Source: an uncultured Dehalococcoidia bacterium
GTDB taxonomy: Bacteria > Chloroflexota > Dehalococcoidia > UBA2247 > RBG-13-53-26
DNA: 55,907 nucleotides
Assembly (NCBI GenBank): GCA_964475375.1
Contig: CAYYWI010000006.1
Location: forward strand, 1 to 55,907
Direction of reading: 5' to 3'
The notes below the pieces were generated by a model that was given only the letters and a program-made list of their open reading frames with translations, was not told the origin of the DNA and made no database searches. Positions 21,484-55,907 of the stretch are shown piece by piece (within the stretch, counting starts at the first letter, position 1; each line of letters begins with the position of its first letter). A program made the position numbers and the translations under genes.

Positions 21484-21509
21484 GAAACCTGAGAAAAGGA
21501 GAGGTCAGA

Positions 21510-37144: not shown

Positions 37145-37207
37145 TCCAACGCCCCCAGGCTTCCGCCTACCCCCTCTTTGACAAAGAGGGGGTGAGGGGG
37201 AGTTCCC
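37145..37207. repeat. palindromic intergenic repeat, family A copy 2
   Basis: tccaacgcccccaggcttccgcctaccccctctttgacaaagagggggtgagggggagttccc, just upstream of the DUF559 start. Confidence 0.85.
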
Positions 37208-37810: not shown

Positions 37811-37872
37811 TCCAACGCCCCCAAGCTACGCGCCTCCCCTCTTTGGCAAAGAGGGGGTGAGGGGGAGTTCCC
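37811..37872. repeat. palindromic intergenic repeat, family A copy 3
   Basis: tccaacgcccccaagctacgcgcctcccctctttggcaaagagggggtgagggggagttccc, ~150 nt upstream of the AAA+/CooC/vWA operon. Confidence 0.85.
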
Positions 37873-38024
37873 ATTACCCTCCACTTTGCACCTTGCCACG
37901 TATTTGGTGAGTTTCAGGTCCTTGACCTACCCGCTCGCGAGGCATTTGCGGTCAAGCGTCACCGAGGCCATCCCGATTGGTTTCAATCCACGCTCCTATT
38001 GTATACTCTAGGCTAGGAGGAACC

Positions 38025-39065: not shown

Positions 39066-39826
39066 CCGTCAGAGGATTGTCCATCGCACTGTCGGGAAAA
39101 GGCGGGGTTGGCAAGACCTTCATCTCAAGCACGCTGATCAAGCGTCTGTCCGAGCATGGATCAGTGCTGGCCATCGATGCCGACCCGGACTCCAATCTGC
39201 CTCAGGCGTTGGGAGTGAAGGTGACCAAGAGCGTGGGCGAATCCCGCGAAGCTATCATCAACGCCCCGGCCCGCAGCGCCGTTGCCGCCTCCAAGCAGGA
39301 GCATTTGGAACTATCCATTCATGAGTCAATAGAGGAATTCCCCCAATTCGACATCATAGTCATGGGCCGCTCCGAAGGAGAAGGCTGTTACTGCTCAGTC
39401 AACCATGTCATAAGGCAGGTGATCGACACCAGGGCCAGAGGCTACGACTTCACGGTGATCGACTGCCATGCCGGTCTGGAGCACCTCAGCCGGCGGACCA
39501 CGCGCGATGTTGACATCATGCTGGTAGTGGTCGAGCCCACCAACAATGCGTTCCATACGGCCAGAAGAGTCATGGAGATATCCAAGGAACTGCTGATTCA
39601 GTTCGGCGCTATACTGGTGGTGGTCAACCGCGTTACGCCGGAGAACAGAGCCCGCGCTGAACAACTCGCCAGGGAGAATGGGGTGGAGATAGCCGTCTAC
39701 GTCCCGTTTGATCCGGTGGTAGCGGAATATGACGTGATGGGCAAACCGGTCAGCGATATTCCCAGGGATTCCCCCGCCGCCAAAGCCATTGACGAGATCT
39801 GCCAGAAGATTCTCAGCTATGCCTGA
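39062..39826 (+). CDS. cooC: CooC/AcsF-type Ni-insertion P-loop ATPase (CO dehydrogenase maturation factor)
   Basis: Deviant Walker A SGKGGVGKT, IDADPDSNL and the CxC metal motif (EGCYCSVN). Its start overlaps the previous stop (ATGA). Confidence 0.85.
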   Translation: MTVRGLSIALSGKGGVGKTFISSTLIKRLSEHGSVLAIDADPDSNLPQALGVKVTKSVGESREAIINAPARSAVAASKQEHLELSIHESIEEFPQFDIIVMGRSEGEGCYCSVNHVIRQVIDTRARGYDFTVIDCHAGLEHLSRRTTRDVDIMLVVVEPTNNAFHTARRVMEISKELLIQFGAILVVVNRVTPENRARAEQLARENGVEIAVYVPFDPVVAEYDVMGKPVSDIPRDSPAAKAIDEICQKILSYA

Positions 39827-42053: not shown

Positions 42054-42163
42054 CAGGAGATTATGGTCGTGCCGAAAGTCCTCCCTGCGATCGCTCCTCA
42101 CGGGCAAGCTCCGCTTCGCCCGTGCCACCCGTCTAGGGTGTGCAGAGGAGAAAAGCCCCTTTG

Positions 42164-42234
42164 CCGAGGGTCTGGGGGTGTCCCTCAGTTTAATCCCCCT
42201 CAGTCCCCCTTTGCGAAAGGGGATTCAGGGGGTT
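42164..42234. repeat. hairpin repeat, family B copy 1
   Basis: ccgagggtctgggggtgtccctcagtttaatccccctcagtccccctttgcgaaaggggattcagggggtt. Core hairpin is tccccctttgcgaaagggga. Confidence 0.85.
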
Positions 42235-42307
42235 CAGAACGAGTTCTGAGACAAAGGCGTCAGGTCCAAGACCTGACAGCCACGAAAGAGGTGCAGGATG
42301 CTTCCTG

Positions 42308-42380
42308 CCGGGAGTCTGAGGGTGTCCCTCAGTTCAAATCCCCCTCAGTCCCCCTTTGCGAAATGGGGATTCAGGGGGTT
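42308..42380. repeat. hairpin repeat, family B copy 2
   Basis: ccgggagtctgagggtgtccctcagttcaaatccccctcagtccccctttgcgaaatggggattcagggggtt. A near-identical direct copy 144 nt after B1. Confidence 0.85.
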
Positions 42381-42395
42381 GAATAGACAAGTACA

Positions 42396-43622
42396 ATGAA
42401 CAAGACTCTAGTCTGCACCGGCTGTGGCTGCCTTTGCGACGACATTCAGGTCGAGATTGAAGACGGCCGCCTTGGAAAGACGGAAAACGCCTGCGCCAAA
42501 GGCGCAGCCTATATCCAGTCAGCCTTCAACACCGAGCGTCGCCCGAAGAGCAGCATCAAAGGCCGGAGCTGCACCACGGATGAGGCGATCGAGGAAGCCG
42601 TCCGGCTCCTTTCCAGAGCCAAAAAGCCTCTCATATTCGGCCTGGACAATTCGACCGTGGAGACTCAGGGCCTTGCAATTGAGCTGGCCCGGAGGCTTGA
42701 GGCGACTCTTGACGATTCTTCGTCGTTTTCCTACGGACCTCTCGTCGAAAAAATCCTCACTGGAGAGCTGCCCAACTGTTCATTGTCCCAGTTGAAAGAC
42801 AAGGCTGACCTGCTTCTGTACTGGGGAGCCAATCCCACCGCCACCCATCCCCGGCACCTCTCCAAGTACACCTACTACGCTTACACCGATTTCACCCCGG
42901 CGGGGTGGTTTCCCAAGGTTACGCTCACTTCTATCGATGTCCGTCAGACCGAGCTGACGGCAATGTCCAAGCCCTCCTTTAAGATTAAACCCGGCAGCGA
43001 TAGAGAACTGATCGCGGGCCTCTTGCACGAGTCACCGGAATCTATAGCGAAAGCGAAACTGCTGGCAGAACTGATCACGAAATCCAAGTTCTGCGCCATG
43101 TTCTGCGGGCTGGGTCTGGTTCATTCCCTGGATGGCGACTTCGGCAGCTTCACCAAAATGGTCGGCATGCTCAGTCAGTCGCTTCGCTTCGCCGTGATCC
43201 CGATGATATCCGAGACCAACATGCTCGGATTTAATCAACTGCTCCGAAAAGAGATTGGTTATGTCAACCAAGTCAGCTTCGCCAACGGCATTTCTCACGG
43301 GCGCGAGTTCTCCTTTGCGGAGCAGGTACAGAACCGCGCCTCGGACTGCATACTGATCGTCGGCTCTGACCCCTTCACCATGCTGCCCCAGTCGCTCATG
43401 GGCAATCTGCGAAACACCAACATCATCTGTCTGGATCACTCATCCACGCTGACCGCACAGGTGGCCGACGTCGTGATACCCACATCGGTGCCGGGCTTGG
43501 AGTCAAGCGGCAGCATGGTACGTTTTGATGGGGACAACATCACTCTGGCGGAACCGATCAGGAACGGATACCCGGCAGAGGCGGAAGTCCTCAGGCAACT
43601 TCTGGAGAAGGTGCGGCCATGA
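42396..43622 (+). CDS. fwdB: formylmethanofuran dehydrogenase subunit B-like molybdopterin/tungstopterin oxidoreductase
   Basis: N-terminal VCTGCGCLCDDI Fe-S motif and ~410-aa size, characteristic of FwdB/FmdB. LLLYWGANPTATHPRH region present. Confidence 0.75.
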   Translation: MNKTLVCTGCGCLCDDIQVEIEDGRLGKTENACAKGAAYIQSAFNTERRPKSSIKGRSCTTDEAIEEAVRLLSRAKKPLIFGLDNSTVETQGLAIELARRLEATLDDSSSFSYGPLVEKILTGELPNCSLSQLKDKADLLLYWGANPTATHPRHLSKYTYYAYTDFTPAGWFPKVTLTSIDVRQTELTAMSKPSFKIKPGSDRELIAGLLHESPESIAKAKLLAELITKSKFCAMFCGLGLVHSLDGDFGSFTKMVGMLSQSLRFAVIPMISETNMLGFNQLLRKEIGYVNQVSFANGISHGREFSFAEQVQNRASDCILIVGSDPFTMLPQSLMGNLRNTNIICLDHSSTLTAQVADVVIPTSVPGLESSGSMVRFDGDNITLAEPIRNGYPAEAEVLRQLLEKVRP

Positions 43623-44020
43623 CATCGCCACAGCAAGGCATCCGGCTCATCATCGTGGCTCACGATGATGCCCATCTGTCCATCGTGCAGCAGAAGGAAG
43701 GATGGGGAGATGCTTACCAGAAGAAAGCTGCCGTCCTGCGCCTTTCCCCGGCTGACATCAAGAAGCTGAGCCTGAAGGACAGCGCCAGGCTCGAGCTTGT
43801 CAGTCCCGCAGGATCGATAGTCATCAATGTGAAGATGGACAGCACATGCCAGGAAGGCACAGGCTGCATGGCTTTCAGCCTCTATACGAACCGCCTGGCC
43901 GGCTACGATCCAAAATCGTCGAGATTACCGGGCACCAGGCACATTCAAGCCCAGGCCGTACCTACCGACAAGAACATCACGCCACTATCAGATCTGTTTG
44001 TGAGAAGGGATCTTGCCTAA
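43619..44020 (+). CDS. fwdD: formylmethanofuran dehydrogenase subunit D-like (molybdopterin dinucleotide-binding beta-barrel)
   Basis: 133 aa with ATGA overlap to the fwdB-like gene. VLRLSPADIKKLSLKDSARLELVSPAGSIVINVKMD...EGTGCM pattern of the MopB C-terminal domain. Confidence 0.65.
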   Translation: MTSPQQGIRLIIVAHDDAHLSIVQQKEGWGDAYQKKAAVLRLSPADIKKLSLKDSARLELVSPAGSIVINVKMDSTCQEGTGCMAFSLYTNRLAGYDPKSSRLPGTRHIQAQAVPTDKNITPLSDLFVRRDLA

Positions 44021-44510
44021 AAAAGAGCTTCAGCCGCTGCAAATATACAGGTTGCTGCCGCGCACCAACTGCAAGAAATGCGGCTCGGCCACCTGTTACG
44101 CTTTCGCTTTTGACCTCATAAGCCGGGGTAAGAAGCCCGAGGGTTGCCCGCCGCTGCTGACAGAGGAATTCGGCGAGTCGTACCTGATGCTCAAGGAGAT
44201 GCTGGGCGAAGGCGAGCTCATCAAGGGAACCGAGCACGTCCTGGACAAGTCACGGTGCACCGGCTGCGGCGACTGCGTCACCGTATGCAACAGAGCACTG
44301 ACTACCATCACAAAGGGAGGCCGCTTCTCACAGCGAGCATCCGTGCCGCCGCCGCTGAAGATTGTGGACGGCAACCTTCAGGTCATACAGTGGTCGAGCT
44401 GCAAACGAGCCACTCCGGGTCTGGACATCTGCAACCTCTGCGCTGAGAAGTGCCCCTTCAGCGCGATAGACCTGGTCAAGCCTGAAGAAGAAGAGACGGA
44501 AGAAGACTAG
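44013..44510 (+). CDS. Fe-S protein: AcsC/RnfB-N-terminal-type [4Fe-4S] domain plus ferredoxin-like Cys motifs
   Basis: LLPRTNCKKCGSATCYAFA matches the Fe-S motif of the corrinoid Fe-S protein large subunit and RnfB N-termini. CTGCGDCVTVC and CNLCAEKCP motifs lie downstream. TTG start. Confidence 0.7.
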   Translation: MPKKELQPLQIYRLLPRTNCKKCGSATCYAFAFDLISRGKKPEGCPPLLTEEFGESYLMLKEMLGEGELIKGTEHVLDKSRCTGCGDCVTVCNRALTTITKGGRFSQRASVPPPLKIVDGNLQVIQWSSCKRATPGLDICNLCAEKCPFSAIDLVKPEEEETEED

Positions 44511-46990
44511 TCGCTCTTCTTCTGCTTCTTAACGCTGTTCGGCAACAACCTCTGCAGATGGCAATGGTACCGGCCGAGCTCCATGCCATAGCTGGTGTTG
44601 AACTCTGAGAGAGTCAACAGCTTGCCATCGCGGTTCCGGGCCTTGGTGACCTTCAGCATGTCGCCTTCCCAGCCATGCTCATCCCGCAGTATCTTGAGCA
44701 GCTTGATGCGGTGCCTGGTCGGTATGTCCAGGTGAGACCGGATCAACAGATGCCAGTCCTCAGGCAGCTCATTGTAGAAGATTCGGTAGAGCTCCAGGTA
44801 GAAGTCCATGCGCGCCGCCCGGCCTTCCCTCATCTCCGAGGTGCTGAAGAACATGCGCGGAATCATAGTGAGGGCCTCTTCCTTGGTCTCCACCGGAACC
44901 AGCAGATGCTCCGGAATAGGCTCGGTCTCTCTCTTCTTCCCATCGTCTCCGTGGTACACAAACCACTTGCTGCGGTCGTACCTGTCCCCAACCATGTATC
45001 GGCCCCAGGTCAGTCCGGAAGCAGGCCCCACCACCACCCTGATCCCCAGCCGGGCATACGCTGCAGCCACAGCATACATCCGGTCGGGCAAACCGCCCCA
45101 CAGCAGCAGTGAGAACGTGGTGTACAGCGATCCCTCACCGACCTCCGGTATTCCACCATACAGTGGGATACCGCCTGCCGCACGCGAGTACATGTACATG
45201 TTGTTGGCCAACGAGATAGCCGCGCAGCCGCCGCAGTTGATCAGCGATCGCGGCTCGATGGACGCCAGGTAAGGCTCGAAAACATACTTGCCCTTGCTGT
45301 CGATGTAGTGTCTGGCCAACTCAGACGCACCGCATCCCGCCGTGAAGACGATGCAGTTCCTTCTGGTCAGCTCATATGCCAGCCAGCCGATCTCTTCGCG
45401 AGGTGCATCGCCGCAGCCCGCTATGATCACGATACCCGGAGCATTGCCCCAGACCATGGAGAAGGCCGACTGCAGTATCTCGGTGAGCGGCAGCGGTCCT
45501 CTGCCCGGCCTCATAACGAACTTGTCCTTGGCCGCTTGCTTTCTCTCAGCAGCAACGATGATGTCGCGCACTTGTATCTTGGACGGGCAGGCAGCTTCAC
45601 ACTTGCCGCAGAAGAAGCAGCCCTTCTCAACCTCAAAGAACGTCTCCCACTTGCCGGCGCTGAGGGACTTCAACGCCTTGGAAACCGGCAGGTCGTTCGG
45701 ACAGGCCATAGAGCAGAGGTCGCAATTGGCCTGGCACTTCTTCGTCTCGGCCACGGCGGCATCGTCACTCATGACATGTGCGGTCCGCTTCACCGTCTGA
45801 GCCACTTTGACCGCCACCTCAGCGGCCTTCTCAGCATCTCTGATCCAGGCGGCCTTCCCGCCGCCAACCAAGTCACCAACTATCTTGTCAACCGCCACGT
45901 CCGTGCTGTCGGCAACGCCGGAAACGCCGTTCGATCCCACCCAGATAAACTTGCTGTCCACTCGGGCAGCCTCGGACGCCAGATCCAGCGGCATGCACGA
46001 AGCGCTGGCCACAACCACATCGAATACACCGTTCCTGATGGCCTTGCCCGCACGCACCATAGGCGCTATGATATGGCCCTTATCATAGAAACGGACAATG
46101 TCATCGCCGGCAGGCCCGATTCCGCAGATCTCCACCTTGTCCAGAGACCCGGCCTTCTTCAGCAAATCAACGGCGCACCACGCCGGCAGGAAATCATCGC
46201 CGGCAAAGGCGATAACCGGCTTGCCCGCCTGTATTGATGCAAAACCTCCGGTCACCTTGGCTGGAGGGAAATTCTCCAGTTCGTCGATCTTCTGCTTCGC
46301 CGCAGAGATGAAGCCGAAACAGGACACCTTGAGCATCTCAGCAACGCCCATAGCCAGCAAAAGGATCGAACCGGCGTGCATCGTCATGCTCTCAAAGCCG
46401 GCCGCATCGCCTGTCCCCGAGAAGCTGGCGGACACGAGCTTGCCCAGTTGCACCTCACCATAGGAGAGAGCCCGATTGAGCTGCTTGAGCGTCTTCACCG
46501 GTATGCCGCTCACCAGACCCACGGGAGGGCAGGAATCAGACATGGTCAGGAGATCGCCCATGCTGACCGGCGTGTCCTCGCTGTGCAGCTTCAACGCGTA
46601 GTTCATCAGGCTTCGCGTGGCGACCATCTGGCTTGCGCAGCCGCGGCAAGCCTTTCTCAGACTCAACCGGCCCTGATATGCGTCGAAGCTCAGTCCGCAA
46701 TTCCCATTGCCTTCTTTCAGGTTGCACGGCCCCAGGCCACAATCGGTGCAGACTCCTTGAGGGCTGGCGTACAGCGGCTCGTATCTCTCCAGCAGAGCGC
46801 GATCCCAGTCTTCCAGATCAGCCGACTCCGGCATTATGTTCAGAGAGGCACCGAATTGCGCGTAGCGGCTCTCAACAAAGTCCTTCTCCAGAATCTCCTT
46901 GACTATGTCCTCGATACCGCGTGGATCACGCACCACTTGTCTTATGTCAACCTTATGCGGTCCAACATGTGCAATCCACTTATCTTCCAC
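44507..46990 (-). CDS. cdhA: archaeal-type CO dehydrogenase/acetyl-CoA synthase alpha subunit (CdhA), copy 1
   Basis: 827 aa. N-terminal Cys cluster (CTDCGLGPC...CGLSF...CRGC) and an inserted 2x[4Fe-4S] ferredoxin module (CQANCDLCSMACP, CFFCGKCEAACP) typical of CdhA rather than CooS. GTG start with GAGGAG RBS. Confidence 0.85.
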   Translation of the reverse strand: MEDKWIAHVGPHKVDIRQVVRDPRGIEDIVKEILEKDFVESRYAQFGASLNIMPESADLEDWDRALLERYEPLYASPQGVCTDCGLGPCNLKEGNGNCGLSFDAYQGRLSLRKACRGCASQMVATRSLMNYALKLHSEDTPVSMGDLLTMSDSCPPVGLVSGIPVKTLKQLNRALSYGEVQLGKLVSASFSGTGDAAGFESMTMHAGSILLLAMGVAEMLKVSCFGFISAAKQKIDELENFPPAKVTGGFASIQAGKPVIAFAGDDFLPAWCAVDLLKKAGSLDKVEICGIGPAGDDIVRFYDKGHIIAPMVRAGKAIRNGVFDVVVASASCMPLDLASEAARVDSKFIWVGSNGVSGVADSTDVAVDKIVGDLVGGGKAAWIRDAEKAAEVAVKVAQTVKRTAHVMSDDAAVAETKKCQANCDLCSMACPNDLPVSKALKSLSAGKWETFFEVEKGCFFCGKCEAACPSKIQVRDIIVAAERKQAAKDKFVMRPGRGPLPLTEILQSAFSMVWGNAPGIVIIAGCGDAPREEIGWLAYELTRRNCIVFTAGCGASELARHYIDSKGKYVFEPYLASIEPRSLINCGGCAAISLANNMYMYSRAAGGIPLYGGIPEVGEGSLYTTFSLLLWGGLPDRMYAVAAAYARLGIRVVVGPASGLTWGRYMVGDRYDRSKWFVYHGDDGKKRETEPIPEHLLVPVETKEEALTMIPRMFFSTSEMREGRAARMDFYLELYRIFYNELPEDWHLLIRSHLDIPTRHRIKLLKILRDEHGWEGDMLKVTKARNRDGKLLTLSEFNTSYGMELGRYHCHLQRLLPNSVKKQKKSD

Positions 46991-47036
46991 TGTTCATCTC
47001 CTCAAACGATCAGATTGTGGCAAGGGCCTGTTCAGG

Positions 47037-47258
47037 CTATCCGAGAAACTCTTTTTCCTTGAAGCACTTCTCACAGACCTTGATCTTCTGTGAAGCCGAC
47101 TTCATGGGGCTGGTGATCCGGCCCATCATCCTCTGGCCGGGCCTGGTCGAGTCGATCCTCACCTCGCGAACGCACTCGTCACAAAGAGCAACACCGCACT
47201 CCTTGCATGTCTCCTGAGCTTCCTTTTTCTGACATACGCCGCACAGATTCTCTGACAT
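47037..47258 (-). CDS. 8-Cys zinc-ribbon/B-box-like small protein (73 aa), copy 1
   Basis: GGGGGA RBS. Four CxxC pairs: CGVC, CKEC, CDEC and CEKC. A paralogue occupies the same position in the second module. Confidence 0.6.
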   Translation of the reverse strand: MSENLCGVCQKKEAQETCKECGVALCDECVREVRIDSTRPGQRMMGRITSPMKSASQKIKVCEKCFKEKEFLG

Positions 47259-47279
47259 GTCTATCCCCCAATCTACCGC

Positions 47280-48650
47280 TTACCCTTCGTCAGGCCAGTC
47301 TTCGCCCGGAAGAGGCAGTTTCAACGGCTGCGGTTCTCCGTTCTTCCAGAACAGCTTTGTTATCGGATGCCCGTTCTTGCTCAGTAATTCCTTAAGCACC
47401 CCGACGTCCAAGGTCTCTTCATTGGTAATAATCTTGTCGTAGACCTCTTCCGGGATCACGTCCGCAATATCCCGCTTAAGGTCCGCCGGCATCCAGACTA
47501 TCCTGTTCCAGCCGCCGTCGCCCTTGAGGAAGTTTTTGCTCGCCATGCCGGCGATAGAGAGTCCCTTGAATCCATGATTCTGGGCGCCGCCGGAGATGGT
47601 CCCCGCCAAAGTAGAGAACTTGACACCGAGCGGAGTCATGCCGGTGTATCGCCGCATGGCCAGGCCGATGCCGTCCACTTCCGGTATGTAGAAGGATGCT
47701 GCTTCGAAGCATCCGCAGTTGGTCGTCGGGTACCTTATGCTGCTGTAGATGTTCACGCGGTTGACCAGATGATTGCATCTCTCCCATATAGCCTGGTCCA
47801 CGCCGGTATAGTGTCCCTTCTGTTTATCCAGACATTCACCCTTGGGGATGGTGAAGACATATCCTTCCGGGTCTATCTCCGCCGTCACCTTGGCCGAGTC
47901 ATAGCCAATGATGCCGCAGTATGGCAGAGCGCTGGGCGTAAGAACACAGGCATGGTTCGGCGCCAGGGACTTGCAGATGGTGCAGCCATAGAAATTCTCG
48001 ACGTCTTCGTCGTCATAGAGCTCCTTGGCGCTGATGATCTTGAATTTCTCTTTGGCCCAGTCCACCAGCGGATTGATCATCTCAACACCGCCGACCTCCG
48101 GAGCGCCAACTGCCCAGAAGAAGGCTATGGAATCCACCTGAGGCATCAGCGTCTTGGCCGTGGCGTAGCAGAACTGGGAAATCTTGGCAAAGGTCAGCCT
48201 CTTGGAGACATCCTTGCTGATACGTATCCAGAGGGAATCCGGCGTACCGAAGAGCATGAAGCCCTCGATACCCTGGAGAGCAGTCCCAATCTGTCTGGAG
48301 ACATAGCCCTGGTGCTTCTGGGTCAAGGTCTTGCCATAGATCCTGATAGTGAAAGCACCCGGCAGCGAAGTGCCCGGCGCTACCTCAGATATGTCAGGGC
48401 CGATGAGTTTGACTTCCCCGTCTTTCACCTTCTCCGGGTCTTCCTCGATGTAGAAGATGGAGAACATCTTGTAGTCCCACTTCGGGCCACCCAGCTCGAT
48501 GTGCATGTCGGCCTTCTTGACTTCGCTCAGCCACCTCAACCCAAGTCCAATGTCGTCCAGGCCATCCCATAAATGTTCAAGATCGGTGGGTAACTGAAAA
48601 ATTCTCCCCGGCGGGAGCTTGGATACTGCTTCTTCCTCTGGAATAGCCAT
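47280..48650 (-). CDS. cdhC: acetyl-CoA synthase / ACDS beta subunit (CdhC), copy 1
   Basis: A-cluster ligand motifs GCTICKSLAPNHACVLTPSALPYCG and NCGCFE. The 456-aa size fits the archaeal-type short form. Confidence 0.85.
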   Translation of the reverse strand: MAIPEEEAVSKLPPGRIFQLPTDLEHLWDGLDDIGLGLRWLSEVKKADMHIELGGPKWDYKMFSIFYIEEDPEKVKDGEVKLIGPDISEVAPGTSLPGAFTIRIYGKTLTQKHQGYVSRQIGTALQGIEGFMLFGTPDSLWIRISKDVSKRLTFAKISQFCYATAKTLMPQVDSIAFFWAVGAPEVGGVEMINPLVDWAKEKFKIISAKELYDDEDVENFYGCTICKSLAPNHACVLTPSALPYCGIIGYDSAKVTAEIDPEGYVFTIPKGECLDKQKGHYTGVDQAIWERCNHLVNRVNIYSSIRYPTTNCGCFEAASFYIPEVDGIGLAMRRYTGMTPLGVKFSTLAGTISGGAQNHGFKGLSIAGMASKNFLKGDGGWNRIVWMPADLKRDIADVIPEEVYDKIITNEETLDVGVLKELLSKNGHPITKLFWKNGEPQPLKLPLPGEDWPDEG

Positions 48651-48751
48651 CTACATAACCCCTTTCGTCGACTTGCGAATCCTAACTAAAATGATACCGG
48701 CAAGAGCACAGTCCAAGCAAAGCTGACTTGCCAGCCAGTCAAATCAGTGCG

Positions 48752-49354
48752 CTATCTGGTCTCCTGCTTGAATTCCCACTTACAGTGGACTTCATCCTTG
48801 CTCTGGCGGCAGCCCGCCCTCAAACACCTCACCTGGATGTCAGGATTCACCGGCCTCACATAGGCCTTCATAGCTTCGTATTCCAGGACCTTGCACACCC
48901 AGTCCAGATGCTCCAGGTCACCCTGCATCTCCATGGCATTGAACGCAGGACAGTAGTGGACGGTAAGGATTGCATGGTTCCTGTTCTTCAGATCGAAATC
49001 GTATTTGTAGTAACCCTGGGCAAACGAGCCCATCAGTTGCGTTGCCTTGATATAGGACTCCACATCATTGCCCTTGATATTAGCCGCCTCCATGGCCCAC
49101 ACTGTCTCATACTTGCCGATCCTGGTCCAGGTGGACAGAAGGCATTCCCTCTCCACATCGCGTCCCAGGCGCTTGCGGACTTCCGCCGCCCAGTACGTGG
49201 GAAGTACGTTCACCTCTCTGGAATAGGCAAGCAGCAGCTTGACCAGCACTTCTTTGGAGAAGTCCTCATACTTCAAGTTGGGGATGTACGGTCCGCTATA
49301 GTCCTTCAGTTCCATTCGGCTCCTCTGCAAAGCGGGGTTGTCAGGGATGTCCAA
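48752..49354 (-). CDS. hypothetical protein (200 aa) upstream of cdhC
   Basis: Clean ORF on the same strand, 100 nt upstream of cdhC. Not similar to CdhB epsilon as I remember it. No family assigned. Confidence 0.55.
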   Translation of the reverse strand: MDIPDNPALQRSRMELKDYSGPYIPNLKYEDFSKEVLVKLLLAYSREVNVLPTYWAAEVRKRLGRDVERECLLSTWTRIGKYETVWAMEAANIKGNDVESYIKATQLMGSFAQGYYKYDFDLKNRNHAILTVHYCPAFNAMEMQGDLEHLDWVCKVLEYEAMKAYVRPVNPDIQVRCLRAGCRQSKDEVHCKWEFKQETR

Positions 49355-49526
49355 GATGTATCGGCAATTTGGAGAGTTGCCGCGCTACTGCGGAGAAAGA
49401 ATTGAAAGAGAAAACAAGGCACTTCGGTAGAACCTGCGAGTTCAATATTAGGGAGGTCCGAACAGGATGACAATCAGGATAAAGCTGGTTCTTGCACTCG
49501 AAAAACCTTGGGGCATGGCCGTGCGG

Positions 49527-50180
49527 CTAATCCTCGACGGAGGTGAGGCCTTCGCGGATGGCGTATTTTGTCAGACCGGCCACGTGGTCTATCTTCAGTT
49601 TGTGCATGATCTGCTGGCGGTGAAACTCCACCGTCTTCACGCTCACATTGAGGGTTGAGGCGATCGTTTTGACGTTCTTGCCTTCGGCTATAAGCTGCAG
49701 CACCTCGCGCTCTCTCGGGGTCAGGTTGGACAGTGTAGAAAGCCGCGCAGCTTTCGGATTTCGCACATACGTGTCCACCACCATACCGGCCACTCCCGGG
49801 CTCAGATAGACCTGCCCTGAAGTCACCACATTGACCGCCCGGATCAGTTCCTCGAAGGCGCAGTCCTTCAGCAGATAACCTGATGCCCCTGCGTTGAGCG
49901 CCTCAGCCACAAATCTCTTGTCCGAATGCATGGACAGGGCAAGCACCTTGGTTTCAGGGCAATCCGCCGCTATCTGCCGCGTGGCCTCGAAGCCGCTCAT
50001 CTCCGGCATGGTCAGATCCATCACTACAACGTCGGGTCTCATCTCTCTGACCAGTTCCACTGCCCTGCGGCCGTTCTCCGCCTCACCGACCACCGCCATA
50101 CCCGGTTCTTTGTTGATCAGGGACGCCAACCCCGCCCGAACGATGCCGTGGTCATCAGCCAGCATGATCCTGATGGTCAA
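49527..50180 (-). CDS. NarL/LuxR-family response regulator
   Basis: REC domain (IMLADDHGIVR...VVVMDLTMPEMSG) and a C-terminal LuxR HTH (LTPREREVLQLIAEGKNVKTIASTLNVSVKTVEFHR). Confidence 0.9.
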   Translation of the reverse strand: MTIRIMLADDHGIVRAGLASLINKEPGMAVVGEAENGRRAVELVREMRPDVVVMDLTMPEMSGFEATRQIAADCPETKVLALSMHSDKRFVAEALNAGASGYLLKDCAFEELIRAVNVVTSGQVYLSPGVAGMVVDTYVRNPKAARLSTLSNLTPREREVLQLIAEGKNVKTIASTLNVSVKTVEFHRQQIMHKLKIDHVAGLTKYAIREGLTSVED

Positions 50181-51517
50181 TTCGTCTTCTCCGAAGCAGA
50201 CTTGTCACCACTTAGAGGAGCCACGAGAATAACCGCAGTTCCCCAACCCGGCTTTGATTTTATCTCAATATGCCCGCCTATTGCTGTCAGCCGCTCTCTG
50301 ATATTGAAAAGGCCGAATCCGTGTGCCGGCCGCGTGCTATCCTCGCTGTCGAACCCAACCCCATCGTCCTTCACCTGTATGCATATGTTCTCATTCACCC
50401 TCTTCACGGAGAGCAGCACCTCACGGGCCCGGGCGTGTTTAGCCACATTGATCAGCAGTTCGTTCGCTGCCCGGAACAGAAGGCCCCGTATGTCGTCGTC
50501 CAGCGGCTTGGCCCGGCCGTCATCCTGCAACTGAGTTGAGATGCCATGCTTGGCCTGGAACTCCTCAGCCAGCCATTCCAGCGCCGGCTCCAGACCCAGT
50601 TCATAGAGCATGGGCGGGCTGAGATCGAAGGTCAGCGATCGGGTCTGCGAAATCGCCTTCTCCAGAAGATCACGTATCTCATCCAGATAGCTTTTGGTCT
50701 CGGAGTTGCCGATCGACTGCCGCAACGGGCCAAGCTTGAGCTTGATCACCGCGAGGGCCTGCCCCACTTGGTCATGGAGATCGGCAGCCAGACGCCTTCG
50801 TTCGCGTTCCTCGGCCACCGAGAGCTGTGATGCCAGCGAACGCAACTGTTCCTGATAGGTGCGAAGCTGCTGCTGCGCCCGCTTCAGGCCTGTAACCTCC
50901 TGCATCTCCACGAGGTATCCGGTCAAAGAAGACCCGACTCGCGCTCCCAGAGGGCAGATCAGGACATCAAAGGACGCGATTCCGCGTCTGGTTCCTTTGT
51001 ACAGGCCGTGTGTCCGGAGATCATCGAAGTCCATGGACACTTCATATCTCACCGTCTCGTTCTTCAACAAGGCATTCTTGACGTCGTCCGGCACAATGGG
51101 GTCGTCGAACAGTGCGGGCCAGTTTCGATCGACGGTCTCACGCATCCCGAACATGTCCAGGCAGGCTTTGTTCACGTCAACAATGCGGCCGCCGGCGTCA
51201 AGGAGCTCGATGGAGATGGGAGATTCCCTGTAGACGCTCCGGAAAAGGTCTTCGCTCTCCTGCAGTTGTCCTATCTCACGCCTGTACTGCGCCTCACGTG
51301 CCTGCAGCTCAGCGACGGTCTTTCGCAGGCGTTCCAACTCGGAAGCCGAGTGTTCGGCCGATGACTCATCAAACGGAGCTACCGACATGACTCCCGAAAT
51401 GCTGCGTAGATAGCAGGTCCTTTGAACTTCAACATCCAGATTGATTTTACCATCCTCGGGGCTGGAAGGACGAAAAATGTCGTACACAGGGCTTGCAGAG
51501 GGCGAAGCCCACGCCAT
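50177..51517 (-). CDS. cytoplasmic PAS-domain sensor histidine kinase (HisKA_3 type)
   Basis: Coiled-coil plus PAS, then the H-box LAADLHDQVGQ and HATPase motifs (NVAKHA, DDGVGF, GFGLFNIRER). No TM segment. 4-nt overlap with the regulator. The true start may be internal. Confidence 0.85.
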   Translation of the reverse strand: MAWASPSASPVYDIFRPSSPEDGKINLDVEVQRTCYLRSISGVMSVAPFDESSAEHSASELERLRKTVAELQAREAQYRREIGQLQESEDLFRSVYRESPISIELLDAGGRIVDVNKACLDMFGMRETVDRNWPALFDDPIVPDDVKNALLKNETVRYEVSMDFDDLRTHGLYKGTRRGIASFDVLICPLGARVGSSLTGYLVEMQEVTGLKRAQQQLRTYQEQLRSLASQLSVAEERERRRLAADLHDQVGQALAVIKLKLGPLRQSIGNSETKSYLDEIRDLLEKAISQTRSLTFDLSPPMLYELGLEPALEWLAEEFQAKHGISTQLQDDGRAKPLDDDIRGLLFRAANELLINVAKHARAREVLLSVKRVNENICIQVKDDGVGFDSEDSTRPAHGFGLFNIRERLTAIGGHIEIKSKPGWGTAVILVAPLSGDKSASEKTN

Positions 51518-51660
51518 GAGCCATCAGCTATGAGCCATGAGCCATAAGGCTTTGAAACGAGGTTGAAGGCAAGTATTGAGACCACGGCCAAGCGTCAATC
51601 ACTCGTCCCTGGTCTTCAGAGTGCGCACGAGCTTCCTGGCCAGGCGCTCAAGCCGCAGCT

Positions 51661-52152
51661 CTACGTCCTGTCCTTTGAGACCTGCTTCGGCGTTTTCGCC
51701 AGCGCGGTCACCTGGCCGACCCAGTGCATGCTGCAGATACCAGCGTATGCCTTGAGGTTGGCGATTGCCTGCCCGATACCCGCCTCCGCGACCGCTACAC
51801 CTGCCACCGGCTTCGATTCGAGATGCGGCCAGATGGGACACGTTCGGTCCATGAAGTTCTTCAGCAAGCCGGAGAGCATATCGAAATAGACAGGTGTGCC
51901 GAGCACGAAGCCGTCCGCCTTCATCAGCACAGGATAAAGCTGCTGCATGTCATCCTGAATGTGGCAAGAGCCCTTTCGCTCAGTTCCGCCCACCTCACAG
52001 CTCAGGCAGCCGTCGCAACCCTTGATATCCTTCTCGCGGAGCAGGATCAGCTCAGTCTCCGCTCCCACCTTGGCCGCCTCATCCAAAAGCTTTCTCAGCA
52101 TCCATTCCGTGTTGCCTTTCCGGGGAGAGCCGCAGATGCCAACGATCTTCAT
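51661..52152 (-). CDS. isf: iron-sulfur flavoprotein (Isf) / NADPH-dependent FMN reductase family
   Basis: MKIVGICGSPRKGNT flavodoxin-like P-loop and a compact Cys cluster CDGCLSC...C. Confidence 0.75.
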   Translation of the reverse strand: MKIVGICGSPRKGNTEWMLRKLLDEAAKVGAETELILLREKDIKGCDGCLSCEVGGTERKGSCHIQDDMQQLYPVLMKADGFVLGTPVYFDMLSGLLKNFMDRTCPIWPHLESKPVAGVAVAEAGIGQAIANLKAYAGICSMHWVGQVTALAKTPKQVSKDRT

Positions 52153-52329
52153 TTGTGGTCACCTCCGTTGGCCAGCGTTGGCGGATTGAAGAGCATGGTG
52201 CCAACGAGACACCCCTATCATAACGTGAATCGCGCTGTGGGAAAAGTAGTCAGTGCAAGGCAAAAAGAATCCGGCGCTTCCTCAAGCGAAAGCGCCGGAC
52301 CTGCGTTTCAGTCTGTGCAGCCTGTCAGG

Positions 52330-54828
52330 CTACTTGGCCTCGCGGGCCTTGTCTCTGATGCGCAACGGGGTCGCGCTTATGAGACGGGTGCTGTAAATAC
52401 CCTGCTCCATGCCGTAGCTGCCCGCAAATTCCGACATGTTCATCACTCTACCATCGCGGTGTTTGGCCTTGATGAGCTTCATGCCGTCCGCTTGCCAGCC
52501 GAACTCCTTGGCCAGCAGGTTGACGACGCGTCTTCTGTAGCGGGGTGGAAGCTCGAAGTCGGACCTTACGAAGAGCTGCCAGTCCTCCGGAAGCTGATCG
52601 TAGAAGCGGTTGTAGAAGTCAATGAGGACTTCCAGGTGGGTCAGACGGCTCTCTCTGTAGTCCTTCACGTTGACCACCGACCGGGCCAGCATGGTGAGCG
52701 CCTCTTCCTTCGTCTCCACCGGCACGATGAGGTGCTCCTTCACCGGCTCCACCTCACGCTTCTCGCCTGTTTCGCCGTGGTAGACCCACCACTTGCTCCG
52801 GTCATACCGGTCTCCGGTCAAGTAGCGGTTCCAACCCAGGGACGATGCCGGTCCGACGATGACCGTCGAACCCATGCGCGCCCACGCGGCCGCCACGGCA
52901 TACATCCTGTCGGGCATGCCACCCCAGATGATGATCGACTGGGCGCCGCCCAGGAATATGGAGTCGCCCAGAGGCGGGATGTTCCCGAAGAGGGAGATGC
53001 CGCCCGAAGGCCGCAGCATCAGGTACATCGGCACTGAATGGCAGATGGCGGAACAACTGCCGCAGTTCACCAGGTTGCGAGCAGCGGCTGTAGCATTGTA
53101 TTGCTGCATGAGGAACTTCTTCTTCGTCGGGCTGAAGGACCGGGCCATTTCAGCCCCGCCGCATCCGGCCACGAAGCACATGTAGCCACTGTTGAGCAAC
53201 TCGTCGGCTATCCAGGCCACCTCATCCTTTTGGGCATCGCCGCAGGCGTATATGGTGACCATGGCCGGGATGCTGCCCCATCCCACCGCGAACGCTGACT
53301 GCAGGAGTTCGGTGATCGAGAACGGGCCTCGTCCGGGCCTCATGAGGAACTTGTCCTGCGCCGCCTGCTTTCTCTCGGCGGCCACGATGATGTCGCGCAA
53401 CTGCACCTTGCTCGGACAAGCTTCGTCGCACTTGCCGCAGAAGTTGCAGCCCTTCTCCACCTCGGCGAAGCCCTTCCAATCGCCGCCGGCCAGTTGCCGC
53501 ACGGCCTTGGATACCGGCAGGTTCACCGGGCAGACGCTGGAGCAGAGATCACAGTCCTGCTTGTGCTCTTTGCACTGCTTGGCGGCATCGGCATCAGAGA
53601 TGATGTGGCTGCCGGTCCTCTTCAGGGCCTGCGCCACCTTGACCGCCACCTCTCCGGCCTTCTCCACATCCCTGACCCAGACCGCCTTCGCGTCACCGAG
53701 CAGGGATTTCACTATCTTGTCGGTTGGCACATCGGTGCTGTCGGCCAGACCGTCAACTCCGTTAGCACCCACCCAGATCGCCTTGGTGCCCACCCTGGCC
53801 GCCTCGGACATGAGGTCGAGCGGAGTGCAGCCGGGGCTGACCACCAGTACATCGAACACACCATTGCGCACAGCCTTGGTCGATCTGACCATGGGAGCTA
53901 TGAGCCGGCCGCGATCGTAGAACCGGACGATATCGTCGCCGGCCGCACCCATGCCACACACTTCGATCTTCTCAGTCAGCTCGTTCTTTTTCAGGTAGTT
54001 GATGGCACACCACGCCGGCAGGAAGTCATCACCGACAAAGGCTATGACCGGTTTCCCGGCTTCAACCGACGCCCATCCTGCATTCAGGGTAGCTGGAGGG
54101 AACTGCTCGATCGTCTCCAGTTCCTGGTTGGCGGCGCTGATGAAGCCGTAGCAGGATATCTTCAACATCTCAGCCACGCCCATGGCCAGAAGCAGAACGG
54201 AGCCTGCATGCAGAACCATGCTCTCGAAATCCGCCGCCGACCCTGTGCCCGAGAAGCTCGCCTGGAACAGCTTGGCCAACTGCCCCTCACCGTATGACTG
54301 GGCCCTGTTGACGTCCTTCAAGGTCTTGATCTGTATGCCGGACAGGACGGTGACGGCCGGAGCGTGGTCCTGAATATTCAGGATTTCGCCCATGCTCACC
54401 TCGGTGTCCTCAGGATGGAGCTTGAGAGCGTAATTCAGAAGCTGCCGGCTGGCCACCAACTGAGTCATGCAGCCACGGCAGGCTTTCCGCAAGCTCAAAC
54501 GACCCTGGTAGGACTCCATCGCCAACCCGCACTTCCCGGTGTTCTTCTTCAGGTCACACGGCCCGAGCTCACAGTCGGAGCAGGTGCCTTTGGGCTGAGT
54601 ATAGAGAGGCTCGCACCTGGCCAGAAGGGCTCGGTCCAACTCGGCAACATCCGCAGCATCAGGTAAGAGATGTATCCATCCGCCGAAGTTGCTGTGACGT
54701 CCTTCGACGAAGTCATTTTCCACGATCTCCATGATTTCGTCCTCGTGGCCCCGCACGTCACGAACAACACTGTTGATGGGGACTTTCAAAGATCCAACGT
54801 TAGCGATCTTGGCTTCCTTATCCTTCAC
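52330..54828 (-). CDS. cdhA: archaeal-type CO dehydrogenase/acetyl-CoA synthase alpha subunit (CdhA), copy 2
   Basis: 832 aa, collinear with copy 1. CSDCELGPC, CKEHKQDCDLCSSVCP and CNFCGKCDEACP motifs. GTG start with GAGGAG RBS. Confidence 0.85.
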   Translation of the reverse strand: MKDKEAKIANVGSLKVPINSVVRDVRGHEDEIMEIVENDFVEGRHSNFGGWIHLLPDAADVAELDRALLARCEPLYTQPKGTCSDCELGPCDLKKNTGKCGLAMESYQGRLSLRKACRGCMTQLVASRQLLNYALKLHPEDTEVSMGEILNIQDHAPAVTVLSGIQIKTLKDVNRAQSYGEGQLAKLFQASFSGTGSAADFESMVLHAGSVLLLAMGVAEMLKISCYGFISAANQELETIEQFPPATLNAGWASVEAGKPVIAFVGDDFLPAWCAINYLKKNELTEKIEVCGMGAAGDDIVRFYDRGRLIAPMVRSTKAVRNGVFDVLVVSPGCTPLDLMSEAARVGTKAIWVGANGVDGLADSTDVPTDKIVKSLLGDAKAVWVRDVEKAGEVAVKVAQALKRTGSHIISDADAAKQCKEHKQDCDLCSSVCPVNLPVSKAVRQLAGGDWKGFAEVEKGCNFCGKCDEACPSKVQLRDIIVAAERKQAAQDKFLMRPGRGPFSITELLQSAFAVGWGSIPAMVTIYACGDAQKDEVAWIADELLNSGYMCFVAGCGGAEMARSFSPTKKKFLMQQYNATAAARNLVNCGSCSAICHSVPMYLMLRPSGGISLFGNIPPLGDSIFLGGAQSIIIWGGMPDRMYAVAAAWARMGSTVIVGPASSLGWNRYLTGDRYDRSKWWVYHGETGEKREVEPVKEHLIVPVETKEEALTMLARSVVNVKDYRESRLTHLEVLIDFYNRFYDQLPEDWQLFVRSDFELPPRYRRRVVNLLAKEFGWQADGMKLIKAKHRDGRVMNMSEFAGSYGMEQGIYSTRLISATPLRIRDKAREAK

Positions 54829-54976
54829 AGCTTTCTCCTCCAGAATTTTCGGTTACTCGGGCCAACCAGCTTGCTTCAGACGAGACAAAGGTTCCAGCGT
54901 CTCACGACGCCGGAACCTTCCGCAATCTCAACCGGAACCCGCACGGTCCGCAGCCTGCTGCCAGCCCATAGTGCAG

Positions 54977-55192
54977 CTAGTCAACGAAATCCACTTCCTT
55001 CATGCACTTTTCGCAAACCTTCTGCTTCTTCATACCCGACTTCAAAGGGCTGGTCAGTACGCCCAGCACTCTCTGTCCCGGGTTCTCTATGGCTACCTCT
55101 TTCAAACACTCAGCGCAGAGAGGAACGCCGCAAACGCTGCACTTCTCTTCCGCCGGCTTCTTCTTGCATACACCACATAACTTCTCTGTCAT
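54977..55192 (-). CDS. 8-Cys zinc-ribbon/B-box-like small protein (71 aa), copy 2
   Basis: GGAGGTGG RBS. CGVC, CSVC, CAEC and CEKC pairs at the same spacing as copy 1. Confidence 0.6.
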   Translation of the reverse strand: MTEKLCGVCKKKPAEEKCSVCGVPLCAECLKEVAIENPGQRVLGVLTSPLKSGMKKQKVCEKCMKEVDFVD

Positions 55193-55211
55193 GATCCACC
55201 TCCGGTGTTGT

Positions 55212-55907
55212 TTACTCCGGCCACTCCCCGCCCGGTGCTGGGACCTTAAGCGGCTGAGGCTCTCTGTTCTTCCAGTACTTCTCGACGATAGGATGATTCT
55301 TCTTCTTGAGGAATTCCTTCAAGTCCTTGGGGTCAATGGCATCCTGCTCCGTGGCTATCTTGTCATAGATTTCTTCCGGGATGTACTCGGCAACCTCTTT
55401 CTTGAGGTCTGCCGGCATCCACACTATTCTGTTCCAGCCGCCATCGCCCTTGAGGAACGTCTTGCTCTGCATGGAGCGCATGGAGACGCCCTTGTTGCCA
55501 TGGTTCTGAGAACCACCGGAGATCGTGCCGGCGAGCCGGGAAAACTTGATCCCCAGCGGCGTGAGTCCGGCATACCGTCTCACCGAGACCCCGATTCCAT
55601 CAACCTCGGGGATATAGAACGCCGCTCCTTCGAAGCAGCCGCAGTTGGTTGTGGGATACTTTATGCAACTGAAGATGTTGCAGTGCTTGATCTGGTGGTT
55701 CGACCTTTCATAGACGGCCTCATCCACGCCGACGTAGCTTCCCATCACCTCGTTCTTGCACTCACCCTTGGGCATGCGGAATATGTATCCCTCCGGATCG
55801 AGCTCAATGGTAACTTGGGCACCATTGTAGGAAAGGATACCGCAGTAAGGAATCTGGCTCGGCGTAATCACGCAGACATGGTTCGGCGCCAGCGACTTGC
55901 AGATGGT
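55212..55907 (-). CDS. cdhC: acetyl-CoA synthase / ACDS beta subunit (CdhC), copy 2 (3' part; runs off the right edge)
   Basis: The frame is open to the window edge (...TICKSLAPNHVCVITPSQIPYCG, NCGCFE) and collinear with copy 1. Confidence 0.85.
   Translation of the reverse strand, partial: TICKSLAPNHVCVITPSQIPYCGILSYNGAQVTIELDPEGYIFRMPKGECKNEVMGSYVGVDEAVYERSNHQIKHCNIFSCIKYPTTNCGCFEGAAFYIPEVDGIGVSVRRYAGLTPLGIKFSRLAGTISGGSQNHGNKGVSMRSMQSKTFLKGDGGWNRIVWMPADLKKEVAEYIPEEIYDKIATEQDAIDPKDLKEFLKKKNHPIVEKYWKNREPQPLKVPAPGGEWPE

Follow-up and report, generated by a model that had tools for sequence, protein, structure and literature searches.

Structural group A-4 of the carbon monoxide dehydrogenase (CODH) homologs was catalogued by Inoue et al. 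in 2019 (PMC6344411) as a bacteria-only, deep-branching group, whose genes are clustered with acetyl-CoA synthase (ACS) genes and whose sequences exhibit "incomplete active-site signatures". The same study placed A-4 in the gene network associated with the Wood-Ljungdahl pathway (WLP). The alpha sequence type considered here is thus already known. However, the published A-4 is a sequence class only, without the Zn-ribbon, ChlI/ChlD-like, FwdBD-like and c4/c8 partner proteins and without the duplication in Dehalococcoidia that are presented below. No function for A-4 or its gene cluster was found in the literature that we searched, including Inoue 2019, Bohm & Land 2026, a 2026 marine CODH survey, the Alkanophaga paper of 2023, Chadwick 2022 and two Chloroflexi genome papers. 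Likewise, neither the extended cluster nor the remodelling of FwdB was found described in the searchable literature, and the same holds for the c4/c8 and Zn-ribbon partners, for the duplication in Dehalococcoidia and for the relatives in archaea. We analysed a 55,907-nucleotide stretch of DNA (hereafter the window; contig CAYYWI010000006.1 of assembly GCA_964475375.1, positions 1 to 55,907) from an uncultured Dehalococcoidia bacterium, in which two modules each encode an ACS beta subunit, a small Zn-ribbon protein and a CdhA-like alpha subunit. We consider it somewhat probable, from the sequence comparisons below, that the modules are the paralogous beta / Zn-ribbon / alpha core of the A-4 Cdh-type branch, in which a real ACS is paired with a non-canonical alpha serving as a non-CODH partner. 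To take them for an ordinary CO2-fixing CODH/ACS is probably a mistake.

An ACS at work without a CODH has a precedent. The ACS of Dehalococcoides mccartyi reportedly (the work is attributed to Zhuang et al. 2014) runs without a working CODH, in an incomplete WLP, by cleaving acetyl-CoA for C1 units; an ACS without CO2/CO catalysis can therefore be physiologically useful. We take this species, of the same class as the window, to have no alpha-like gene and to have acsC and acsD beside acsB. In contrast, the window family strictly retains a remodelled alpha, without linked genes for the corrinoid iron-sulfur protein (CFeSP).

Both modules lie on the minus strand, at the places given in a preliminary description of this DNA, as borne out by the listing of open reading frames (ORFs). 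In module 1, the gene of a short CdhC-type ACS (BETA1, 456 aa, 47280..48650; Pfam, NCBIfam and alignment) is followed by that of a Zn-ribbon protein (Zn-ribbon 1, 73 aa, 47037..47258; ORF listing and Pfam) and that of a CdhA-like subunit of group A-4 (ALPHA1, 827 aa, 44507..46990; ORF listing, Pfam, NCBIfam and an AlphaFold2 (AF2) model). Module 2 is composed of a second CdhC-type ACS, of which the C-terminal 231 aa are seen while the gene exceeds the window end (BETA2, 55212..55907; Pfam and NCBIfam), Zn-ribbon 2 (71 aa, 54977..55192; ORF listing and Pfam) and a second A-4 CdhA-like subunit (ALPHA2, 832 aa, 52330..54828; ORF listing, Pfam and NCBIfam). The two alphas exhibit 58.1% amino acid and 66% nucleotide sequence identity, the two betas 65.8% and 69%, and the two Zn-ribbon proteins 60% amino acid identity, which agrees with the old duplication or acquisition proposed in the preliminary description. 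Its view of the host context as bacterial also stands: the window contains ftsZ, miaB and the gene of a ClpC-type ATPase, and its rpoB and rpoC score above the equivalog cutoffs for bacteria. We considered a chimeric contig or a recent import of archaeal DNA and rejected both. The GC content at third codon positions (GC3) of the modules (0.72-0.79) is like that of rpoBC (0.67-0.70), the synteny is shared by more than 20 metagenome-assembled genomes (MAGs) of Dehalococcoidia, and the clade is bacterial.

The betas match CdhC and ACS_CODH_B_C in Pfam (PF03598 and PF19436) and align to residues 331-688 of bacterial AcsB, corresponding to the short form, as had been claimed. The A-cluster motifs CxxC-x7-C-x9-C and CGC are present. 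BETA1 exhibits all six A-cluster cysteines; the visible part of BETA2 exhibits the CGC and the last three of the four [4Fe-4S] cysteines, the first one lying beyond the window end. BETA1 exceeds the cutoffs of TIGR00316 (357.8 against 355.95 bits, a marginal pass) and NF003379 (390 against 372). Among the 70 positions conserved at the level of at least 90% in both family betas (n = 103) and canonical CdhC (n = 14), 69 are identical between the two groups; the single fixed difference is an asparagine (N311) for serine just before the CGC. The position equivalent to Phe512 of Moorella ACS (CQSFAP) is a leucine (CKSLAP) in both Dehalococcoidia beta lineages and mostly a phenylalanine in other family betas and in canonical CdhC. 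The BETA1 and BETA2 lineages differ at 58 sites, without obvious concentration at the A-cluster loops, and the approximate dN/dS of BETA1 is 0.08. From its complete set of A-cluster ligands, BETA1 looks like a fully competent acetyl-CoA synthase. The Zn-ribbon protein is a family-specific partner found in 27 loci, always between beta and alpha. Zn-ribbon 1 contains four CxxC pairs in a B-box-like arrangement, with all eight cysteines conserved in 29 homologs and an approximate dN/dS of 0.08.

The alphas exhibit a quite different pattern. In Pfam, both ALPHA1 and ALPHA2 match Prismane/CODH together with a 2x[4Fe-4S] (dicluster ferredoxin) insertion at about residues 415-475, the inserted module noticed previously. 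The AF2 model of ALPHA1 (pLDDT 88.8, pTM 0.91) gives TM-scores of 0.85/0.92 to CdhA structures (9c0r, 8riu, 3cf4) and of about 0.45 to CooS-type CODHs; the modelled fold thus agrees with the earlier assignment to CdhA rather than to CooS or HCP. Against TIGR00314 (cdhA), however, ALPHA1 scores 464.2 bits and ALPHA2 425.3 bits, both below the curated equivalog cutoff of 781.3. Pairwise HMMER alignments with the CdhA structures 8riu_A and 9c0q_A reveal "GDD" in place of "GHN" and "GIGPA" in place of "GICCT", and an N-terminal cysteine motif with two cysteines fewer. We read the ligand columns against Methanothermobacter CdhA in an alignment of 101 homologs taken from a search of 5.8 billion proteins (His93 and Lys563 in CODH-II numbering). 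The C-cluster histidine (His261-equivalent) is an aspartate in both alphas (Asp265 in ALPHA1). The first C-cluster cysteine (Cys1, Cys295-equivalent) is replaced by Gly292-Pro293 in ALPHA1 and by alanine in ALPHA2. The acid-base histidine (His93-equivalent) is Gln121 and the Lys563-equivalent is Arg637, both invariant in the family. The D-cluster (type I) is missing in both alphas, two of the N-terminal cysteines being absent. The B, E and F [4Fe-4S] motifs, including the four B-cluster cysteines, and Cys2-5 of the C site are kept. The preliminary description, which spoke of an archaeal-type CODH/ACS, was correct as to the Cdh-type (clade A) alpha and the short CdhC-type beta, and not as to a canonical CODH/ACS. 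In the comparison of cluster ligands that it called for in both copies, the A-cluster holds as far as BETA2 is visible, and the C-cluster does not: ligand loss, named there beforehand as an observation that would tell against it, was found in both alphas.

These substitutions are not peculiar to the window. About 85 family members exhibit aspartate for the C-cluster histidine, glycine plus proline, alanine or serine for the CC pair, glutamine for the acid-base histidine and arginine for the lysine, with the D-cluster cysteines missing and Cys2-5 and the B-cluster kept, whereas canonical sequences in the same alignment read H/C/C/C/C/C, H and K. The family-specific invariant residues include Gln121, Asp265, Gly292, Arg637, Met638, Glu218, Lys221 and Asp424. 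The dN/dS values (Nei-Gojobori, against orthologs) are approximately 0.09-0.13 for ALPHA1 and 0.08 for ALPHA2. Because of this low dN/dS (about 0.1) and the fixation across about 85 homologs, the sequence data indicate that the substitutions are a fixed, selected trait of the family, not the decay of one copy. By their modelled fold the alphas are CdhA-type but non-canonical: they share with canonical CdhA (A-1) the Cdh-type fold and the E/F module, and they lack the full C-cluster set (histidine plus five cysteines), the acid-base pair and the D-cluster.

The published A-4 signature (PMC6344411, Table 2: no D-cluster; D/P/C/C/C/C; Q/R; E/F present) is exactly that of ALPHA1, and ALPHA2 departs from it only by the alanine at Cys1. 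The A-4 representative OIP92259.1 was found by exact-sequence look-up to be the alpha of a Syntrophaceae CG2_30 locus (L031 in our numbering of loci); it belongs to the same clade and the same gene cluster, with 42% sequence identity. It exhibits a proline at Cys1, where ALPHA2 and its orthologs exhibit alanine or serine. Judged by this signature, the alphas belong to A-4, a bacteria-only subclade, rather than representing an archaeal enzyme of recent import.

The resemblance to the archaeal acetyl-CoA decarbonylase/synthase (ACDS; CdhABCDE; 9c0q-t, 3cf4, 8riu) concerns the alpha fold, the E/F insertion, the B-cluster, the short CdhC beta with a full A-cluster, a CooC-type gene in the cluster and an epsilon-like partner in related loci. 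The differences are at least as conspicuous. The alpha exhibits 26-31% sequence identity, has extensions of about 45 aa at each end, and lacks the C-cluster His/Cys1, the acid-base His/Lys and the D-cluster; no gamma/delta (CFeSP) genes lie nearby, and there are extra partners (Zn-ribbon, ChlI/ChlD-like, FwdBD-like, a 165-aa ferredoxin, c4/c8). In HCP and clade D CODH-V, of the same superfamily (PF03063), replacement of C-cluster ligands goes with a changed function, the proteins having altered clusters and not oxidising CO; they differ from the window alphas in their CooS/HCP-type folds (TM-score about 0.45), their glutamate ligands and the absence of an ACS partner.

In a neighbor-joining (NJ) tree, computed without bootstrap, all alphas lacking the pendant-iron ligands form one clade apart from canonical CdhA. 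The clade contains the bacterial A-4 group, an A-6-like deltaproteobacterial group and an archaeal group, its members occurring in Dehalococcoidia, Desulfobacterota, ANME-1 and Ca. Alkanophaga. The A-6-like alphas exhibit asparagine or phenylalanine at the histidine position, serine at Cys1 and leucine at the lysine position. In the archaeal alphas (35-38% identity) the histidine is replaced by asparagine, the CC pair by Gly-Ala, the acid-base histidine by glutamine and the lysine by glutamate, threonine or aspartate. Their hosts are ANME-1/Methanophagales, Methanosarcinales MAGs from AMOR, and Ca. Alkanophaga (L036, L042, L078 for Ca. Alkanophaga; L043-L051, L060, L062, L069, L070, L072 and L074-L076 for ANME-1 and Methanosarcinales MAGs). 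The Alkanophaga gene order is Zn-ribbon, alpha, epsilon and beta, followed by thiolase and DUF35, and the ANME-1 alpha is mostly alone. The ortholog groups of ALPHA1 and ALPHA2 (orthologs 68-83% and 69-91% identical to them, respectively) are sisters inside Dehalococcoidia in the NJ tree, and both paralog lineages are kept in many members of the class. Because of this sister position, the duplication, although old, is placed by the tree inside Dehalococcoidia.

The two modules are embedded in a larger conserved cluster, which the preliminary description did not notice; it missed seven conserved partner genes at 35.8-44.5 kb. With the family alignment we scanned one genome per GTDB species and obtained 76 loci, whose gene order was determined after ORF calling and BLASTP clustering. 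The clustering took in 79 sequences (78 loci and the window), and four loci (L001, L079, L081, L082) were annotated with Pfam. The co-occurrence holds over the 76 loci in several phyla, and L081 and L082, which were annotated independently, exhibit the same partners. MAGs with the cluster include GCA_040961035.1, PUNJ01, CAZBJX01, MNZP01 and MHDQ01. In Nitrospinae, Syntrophaceae, other Desulfobacterota and some Chloroflexota, the order is ChlI-like AAA+, CooC-like ATPase, beta, ChlD-like (AAA + VWA), Zn-ribbon, alpha, epsilon-like, c4_189, FwdB-like, FwdD-like, 165-aa ferredoxin and c8_263. In Dehalococcoidia, the genes of an acyl-CoA mutase, its B12 subunit and MeaB (not in all cases) precede epsilon-like, c4, SDR and two successive beta / Zn-ribbon / alpha modules, convergent with ferredoxin, FwdD, FwdB, ChlD, CooC and ChlI, then c8. 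The window has this Dehalococcoidia layout, and the cluster is visible from 35.8 kb. At L025, L029, L065 and L077, two successive beta ORFs are found where other loci carry one; a split gene or an assembly frameshift is possible.

In the window, the plus-strand partners begin with a ChlI/MoxR-like AAA+ ATPase (362 aa, 37977..39065), followed by a CooC/AcsF-like P-loop ATPase with a C-x-C motif (254 aa, 39062..39826), a candidate Ni-insertion factor, and a ChlD-like protein, AAA+-like in its N-terminal half and with a VWA domain at the C-terminus (754 aa, 39789..42053). Then come a FwdB-like subunit of the type carrying Mo/W-bis-pyranopterin guanine dinucleotide (bisPGD) (408 aa, 42396..43622), a FwdD-like protein with a molybdopterin-dinucleotide-binding domain (133 aa, 43619..44020), and a 165-aa Fe-S protein convergent with ALPHA1 (44013..44510), in which an N-terminal [4Fe-4S] domain of the AcsC/CdhE/RnfB type (PF04060) is joined to a 2x[4Fe-4S] ferredoxin. 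The last gene of the conserved cluster, on the minus strand, encodes the conserved 276-aa protein c8 (35790..36620).

Compared with FwdBD of formylmethanofuran dehydrogenase (5t5i, 8rja) and FhcB, the FwdB-like and FwdD-like proteins of the window pass or approach the Fwd models. The FwdB-like protein scores 338.3 against the TIGR03129 cutoff of 327.8 and keeps the N-terminal [4Fe-4S] motif CxxCxCxCDD...C. Its active site is remodelled: in the alignment with 8rja_B (M. wolfeii numbering), the window protein has Ser-Tyr in place of the tungsten ligand pair Cys118-His119 and isoleucine in place of Arg288. Arg288 is absent in 23 out of 23 FwdB-like members of the cluster. The metal-ligand position is a cysteine (Cys-Gln or Cys-His) in Desulfobacterota, Nitrospinae and Spirochaetota, Ser-Tyr or Ser-Trp in most Dehalococcoidia, the window's clade, and neither in the Dehalococcoidia locus L009. 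Neither FwdA nor FwdC partners were found in the loci of the conserved cluster. Since Arg288 is never present and Cys118-His119 is mostly replaced in Dehalococcoidia, the FwdB-like protein probably does not act as an ordinary formate dehydrogenase or CO2 reductase.

The remaining conserved partners are not all within the window. The earlier observation that no cdhB, cdhD/E or methyltransferase gene lies in the 44.5-55.9 kb region is correct, and no epsilon (CdhB) gene is found inside the window; related loci, however, regularly include a diverged epsilon-like gene, located after alpha or before module 2 in 27 of them (PF02552, 29 bits against 21; cdhB TIGR00315, 47 against 101). For the window, the shared gene order predicts its position immediately past the end, upstream of BETA2. 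No cdhD/E-type (PF03599) gene was found in the window or in the flanks of L001, L079, L081 and L082, nor did the 78 loci and the window yield a recurrent ORF cluster of CFeSP size. The c4_189 gene is found at L029:13275-13820 and in 23 other loci. In the c8 protein, a beta domain at the N-terminus is followed by a PD-(D/E)xK-like C-terminal domain, the latter paralogous to c4_189 (hhalign probability 77%, E-value 2e-5). With its AF2 model (pLDDT 82), Foldseek gave only weak PD-(D/E)xK or NucS/EndoMS-like matches (E-value about 2e-3, all above 1e-3); the sequence search of the PDB with c8 gave nothing, and the c4 profile matched only an uncharacterised A. fulgidus protein (2ph7). The resemblance would place a nuclease-like fold within a metalloenzyme operon.

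Taken as a real ACS with a non-CODH partner, the system might work as follows. The beta would act on acetyl-CoA, or on a short acyl-CoA closely resembling it, by making or cleaving its C-C and C-S bonds. The alpha would be a redox wire, a scaffold or a CO-handling partner of beta, and not a normal CODH interconverting CO2 and CO. The remodelled FwdBD-like pterin module may supply or accept electrons by way of the cluster chain of alpha and the 165-aa ferredoxin. Putative maturation factors, for instance in metal insertion, are the CooC-like ATPase and the ChlI/ChlD-like pair, by analogy with MoxR/VWA pairs such as CoxD/E and NorQ/D, which mature metal sites. The two isoforms, derived from the duplication inside Dehalococcoidia, would share one set of accessory genes and be transcribed separately. 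An acyl-CoA context is in keeping with this, with mutase, MeaB and SDR genes in Dehalococcoidia, thiolase and DUF35 in Alkanophaga, and CoA-transferase and ADP-forming CoA ligase genes in the window.

Several points weigh against this reading. Four residues before the lost Cys1 lies Cys289, which 57 of 61 clade members share as compared with three of seven canonical CdhA sequences; together with Asp265 it could rebuild a pendant-metal site, so that the alpha may have some CO/CO2 activity. With dS around 1, near saturation, the dN/dS values of the alphas, beta and Zn-ribbon are approximate. The "CooC-like" label of the candidate ATPase comes from a generic P-loop (CbiA/ParA-family) match and a CYC motif, and the electron path via the FwdBD-like module is inferred from gene clustering. 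No corrinoid protein was seen near the loci, and the rest of the genome was not searched for a corrinoid protein or methyltransferase.

A bolder form of the proposal is that the cluster encodes a new Ni-Fe-S/pterin multienzyme, where a canonical A-cluster synthase acts without a C-cluster. The carbonyl redox step would have moved to the FwdBD-like Mo/W site, or the substrate would be another short acyl-CoA undergoing decarbonylation or carbonylation, as the mutase, thiolase and CoA-transferase neighbours might suggest. We regard this as rather unlikely on the sequence features at hand. If it were true, the relatives in ANME-1 and Ca. Alkanophaga would also perform non-ACDS chemistry.

A more conservative interpretation, held by the preliminary description and by the usual annotation of MAGs, takes the modules as ordinary ACDS-type CODH/ACS isoenzymes of the WLP. 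The C-cluster would be re-ligated, with Asp265 and Cys289 for His and Cys1 and arginine for lysine, and would still interconvert CO2 and CO, CFeSP and methyltransferase being encoded elsewhere. The place of A-4 in the WLP-associated network (Inoue 2019, PMC6344411) speaks for it, as do the Cdh-type fold, the grouping of the beta, alpha and epsilon-like genes, the CooC-like gene of the cluster, the retention in alpha of Cys2-5 including the Ni-binding cysteine, and the fact that the conservation of Cys289 is specific to the clade. Database names are divided: the proteins are called ACDS alpha/beta at JGI and in some records of NCBI, whereas most members are "hypothetical protein" at NCBI, and the alphas score far under the cdhA cutoff. 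The ligand changes are harder to reconcile with this interpretation, in that the histidine, Cys1, the acid-base histidine and the lysine are all altered together, and invariantly. In the CooS-type CODHs (Ch CODH-II, Mt CODH/ACS), substitutions at these positions abolish or cripple activity; the PDB holds such CODH variants (C295D, K563A/H and H93A among the structure matches). No CFeSP was seen in the flanks of the 82 loci. Moreover, Alkanophaga and ANME-1 already own a canonical ACDS, yet keep extra relatives of this alpha, which points to a different role. The 2023 paper on Alkanophaga mentions "multiple ACDS" and unresolved carbon-flow steps. Overall, we judge ordinary isoenzymes to be improbable.

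It is similarly improbable, in our estimate, that the alpha, by analogy with HCP and clade D CODH-V, catalyses some other small-molecule reaction at a remodelled cluster, such as N- or S-oxide reduction or non-redox CO hydration, or that the FwdBD-like pterin site oxidises CO released by beta through oxygen-atom transfer. The invariance of the replacement residues (Asp, Gln, Arg, Glu218, Lys221) indicates a selected functional site rather than a dead one, and there are CODH homologs in which O-donor ligands occupy these positions (D-1/HCP rows, Inoue Table 2, PMC6344411). In the alphas, unlike in HCP, only one carboxylate stands in for the lost ligands. In the pocket of the FwdB-like protein, Arg, His and Cys have disappeared, and Ile, Tyr/Trp and, at the metal-ligand position, Ser have appeared. 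Serine is the metal ligand of the dimethyl sulfoxide (DMSO) reductase type. For the oxidation of CO by a bisPGD enzyme, however, we know of no precedent. The proposal proceeds by analogy throughout, the neighbours indicate no substrate, and the tight coupling to a canonical ACS favours carbonyl/acetyl over N-oxide chemistry.

That the modules are decaying or pseudo-enzyme copies, relics of a former CODH/ACS, would account for the loss of canonical catalytic residues in both alpha and the FwdB-like protein, but it is highly improbable and effectively refuted by the dN/dS (about 0.08-0.13) and the fixation of the same substitutions in about 85 homologs of several phyla, besides the intact ORFs, the gene order kept over 76 loci and the retention of both paralog lineages in many Dehalococcoidia.

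The question bears on genome annotation. Such genes are routinely annotated as CODH/ACS in metagenome bins, from which the WLP, autotrophy and homoacetogenesis are inferred for subsurface Chloroflexota and Desulfobacterota. Should the alpha be unable to interconvert CO2 and CO, these conclusions would have to be re-examined in every case where an A-4 alpha is the only CODH. The combination of an apparently intact ACS, a C-cluster-deficient CdhA, a remodelled FwdBD and chelatase-like ATPases is a testable candidate for new nickel, iron-sulfur or pterin chemistry, with relatives living in methane- and alkane-oxidising archaea, where carbon-flow steps remain unresolved. Two isoforms with common accessory genes also offer a natural system for asking what sets isoforms apart.

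In most related loci the modules are directly adjacent; a peculiarity of the window is that they are separated by an FMN-reductase-fold gene, a kinase/regulator pair and a DUF6125-like ORF, all on the minus strand. The DUF6125-like ORF (200 aa, 48752..49354), upstream of BETA1, exhibits a weak match to PF19620 and 39% identity (E-value 3e-38) to the DUF6125 gene following the epsilon-like gene in L081; homologs are found near the modules in the Dehalococcoidia loci L003, L018, L019, L020 and L073. We also considered this ORF as the c4_189 partner, and found no similarity. A LuxR-type response regulator (49527-50180) and a histidine kinase with a PAS domain (50177-51517) come next, and this pair probably controls module 1. 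The FMN-reductase/flavodoxin-fold protein (PF03358, 163 aa, 51661..52152) is located downstream of module 2, and its homologs adjoin the cluster in L021, L073 and L082. Directly after the ALPHA2 stop codon, a terminator-like hairpin with a 14-bp stem and a T-run (52268..52301, minus strand; consensus match only) suggests that module 2 is a transcription unit of its own. A promoter-like site, also a consensus match only, precedes the DUF6125-like ORF. No Moco, NiCo or cobalamin riboswitch was found, as the Rfam search of the whole window at the gathering threshold gave one tRNA only.

The recurrent neighbours of the cluster are acyl-CoA mutase, SDR, AOR, ADP-forming CoA ligase, family-III CoA-transferase, LivK-type ABC transporters and amine-oxidase-like flavoproteins, and their predicted functions point to an acyl-CoA context. 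Genes of a B12-dependent acyl-CoA mutase (large subunit, B12 subunit, MeaB) lie beside the cluster in two distant subfamilies, namely in Dehalococcoidia (L008, L009, L011, L013, L014, L016, L021) and in loci of A-6 type (L037, L038), as well as in L001. In typing the mutase substrates by NCBIfam, only generic mutase domain models matched. The window itself encodes a family-III (formyl-CoA-transferase-like) CoA-transferase (7729-9030, minus strand) and an ADP-forming acyl-CoA ligase (9267-10682, plus strand). Homologs of this CoA-transferase adjoin the cluster in L041, L056 and L065.

Other features of the window were noticed in passing. REP-like palindromic repeats with perfect 21-nt arms (CTCCCGCCTACCCCCTCTTTG / CAAAGAGGGGGTAGGCGGGAG) occur at 36678-36736, 37147-37205 and 37812-37870, within the 1.35 kb that separate c8 from the ChlI-like gene, and the interval from the ChlD-like gene to the FwdB-like gene contains a related REP-like pair (42162-42222, 42306-42367). 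A B12-binding radical SAM protein is encoded at 11432-12997 on the minus strand, and a homolog of the AmmeMemoRadiSam system protein B at 4304-5566 on the plus strand. Finally, three tandem ftsZ paralogs, which is unusual for a bacterium, are found on the plus strand at 18317-19408, 20041-21171 and 21462-22634, with scores of 353, 343 and 340 bits against a cutoff of 295.

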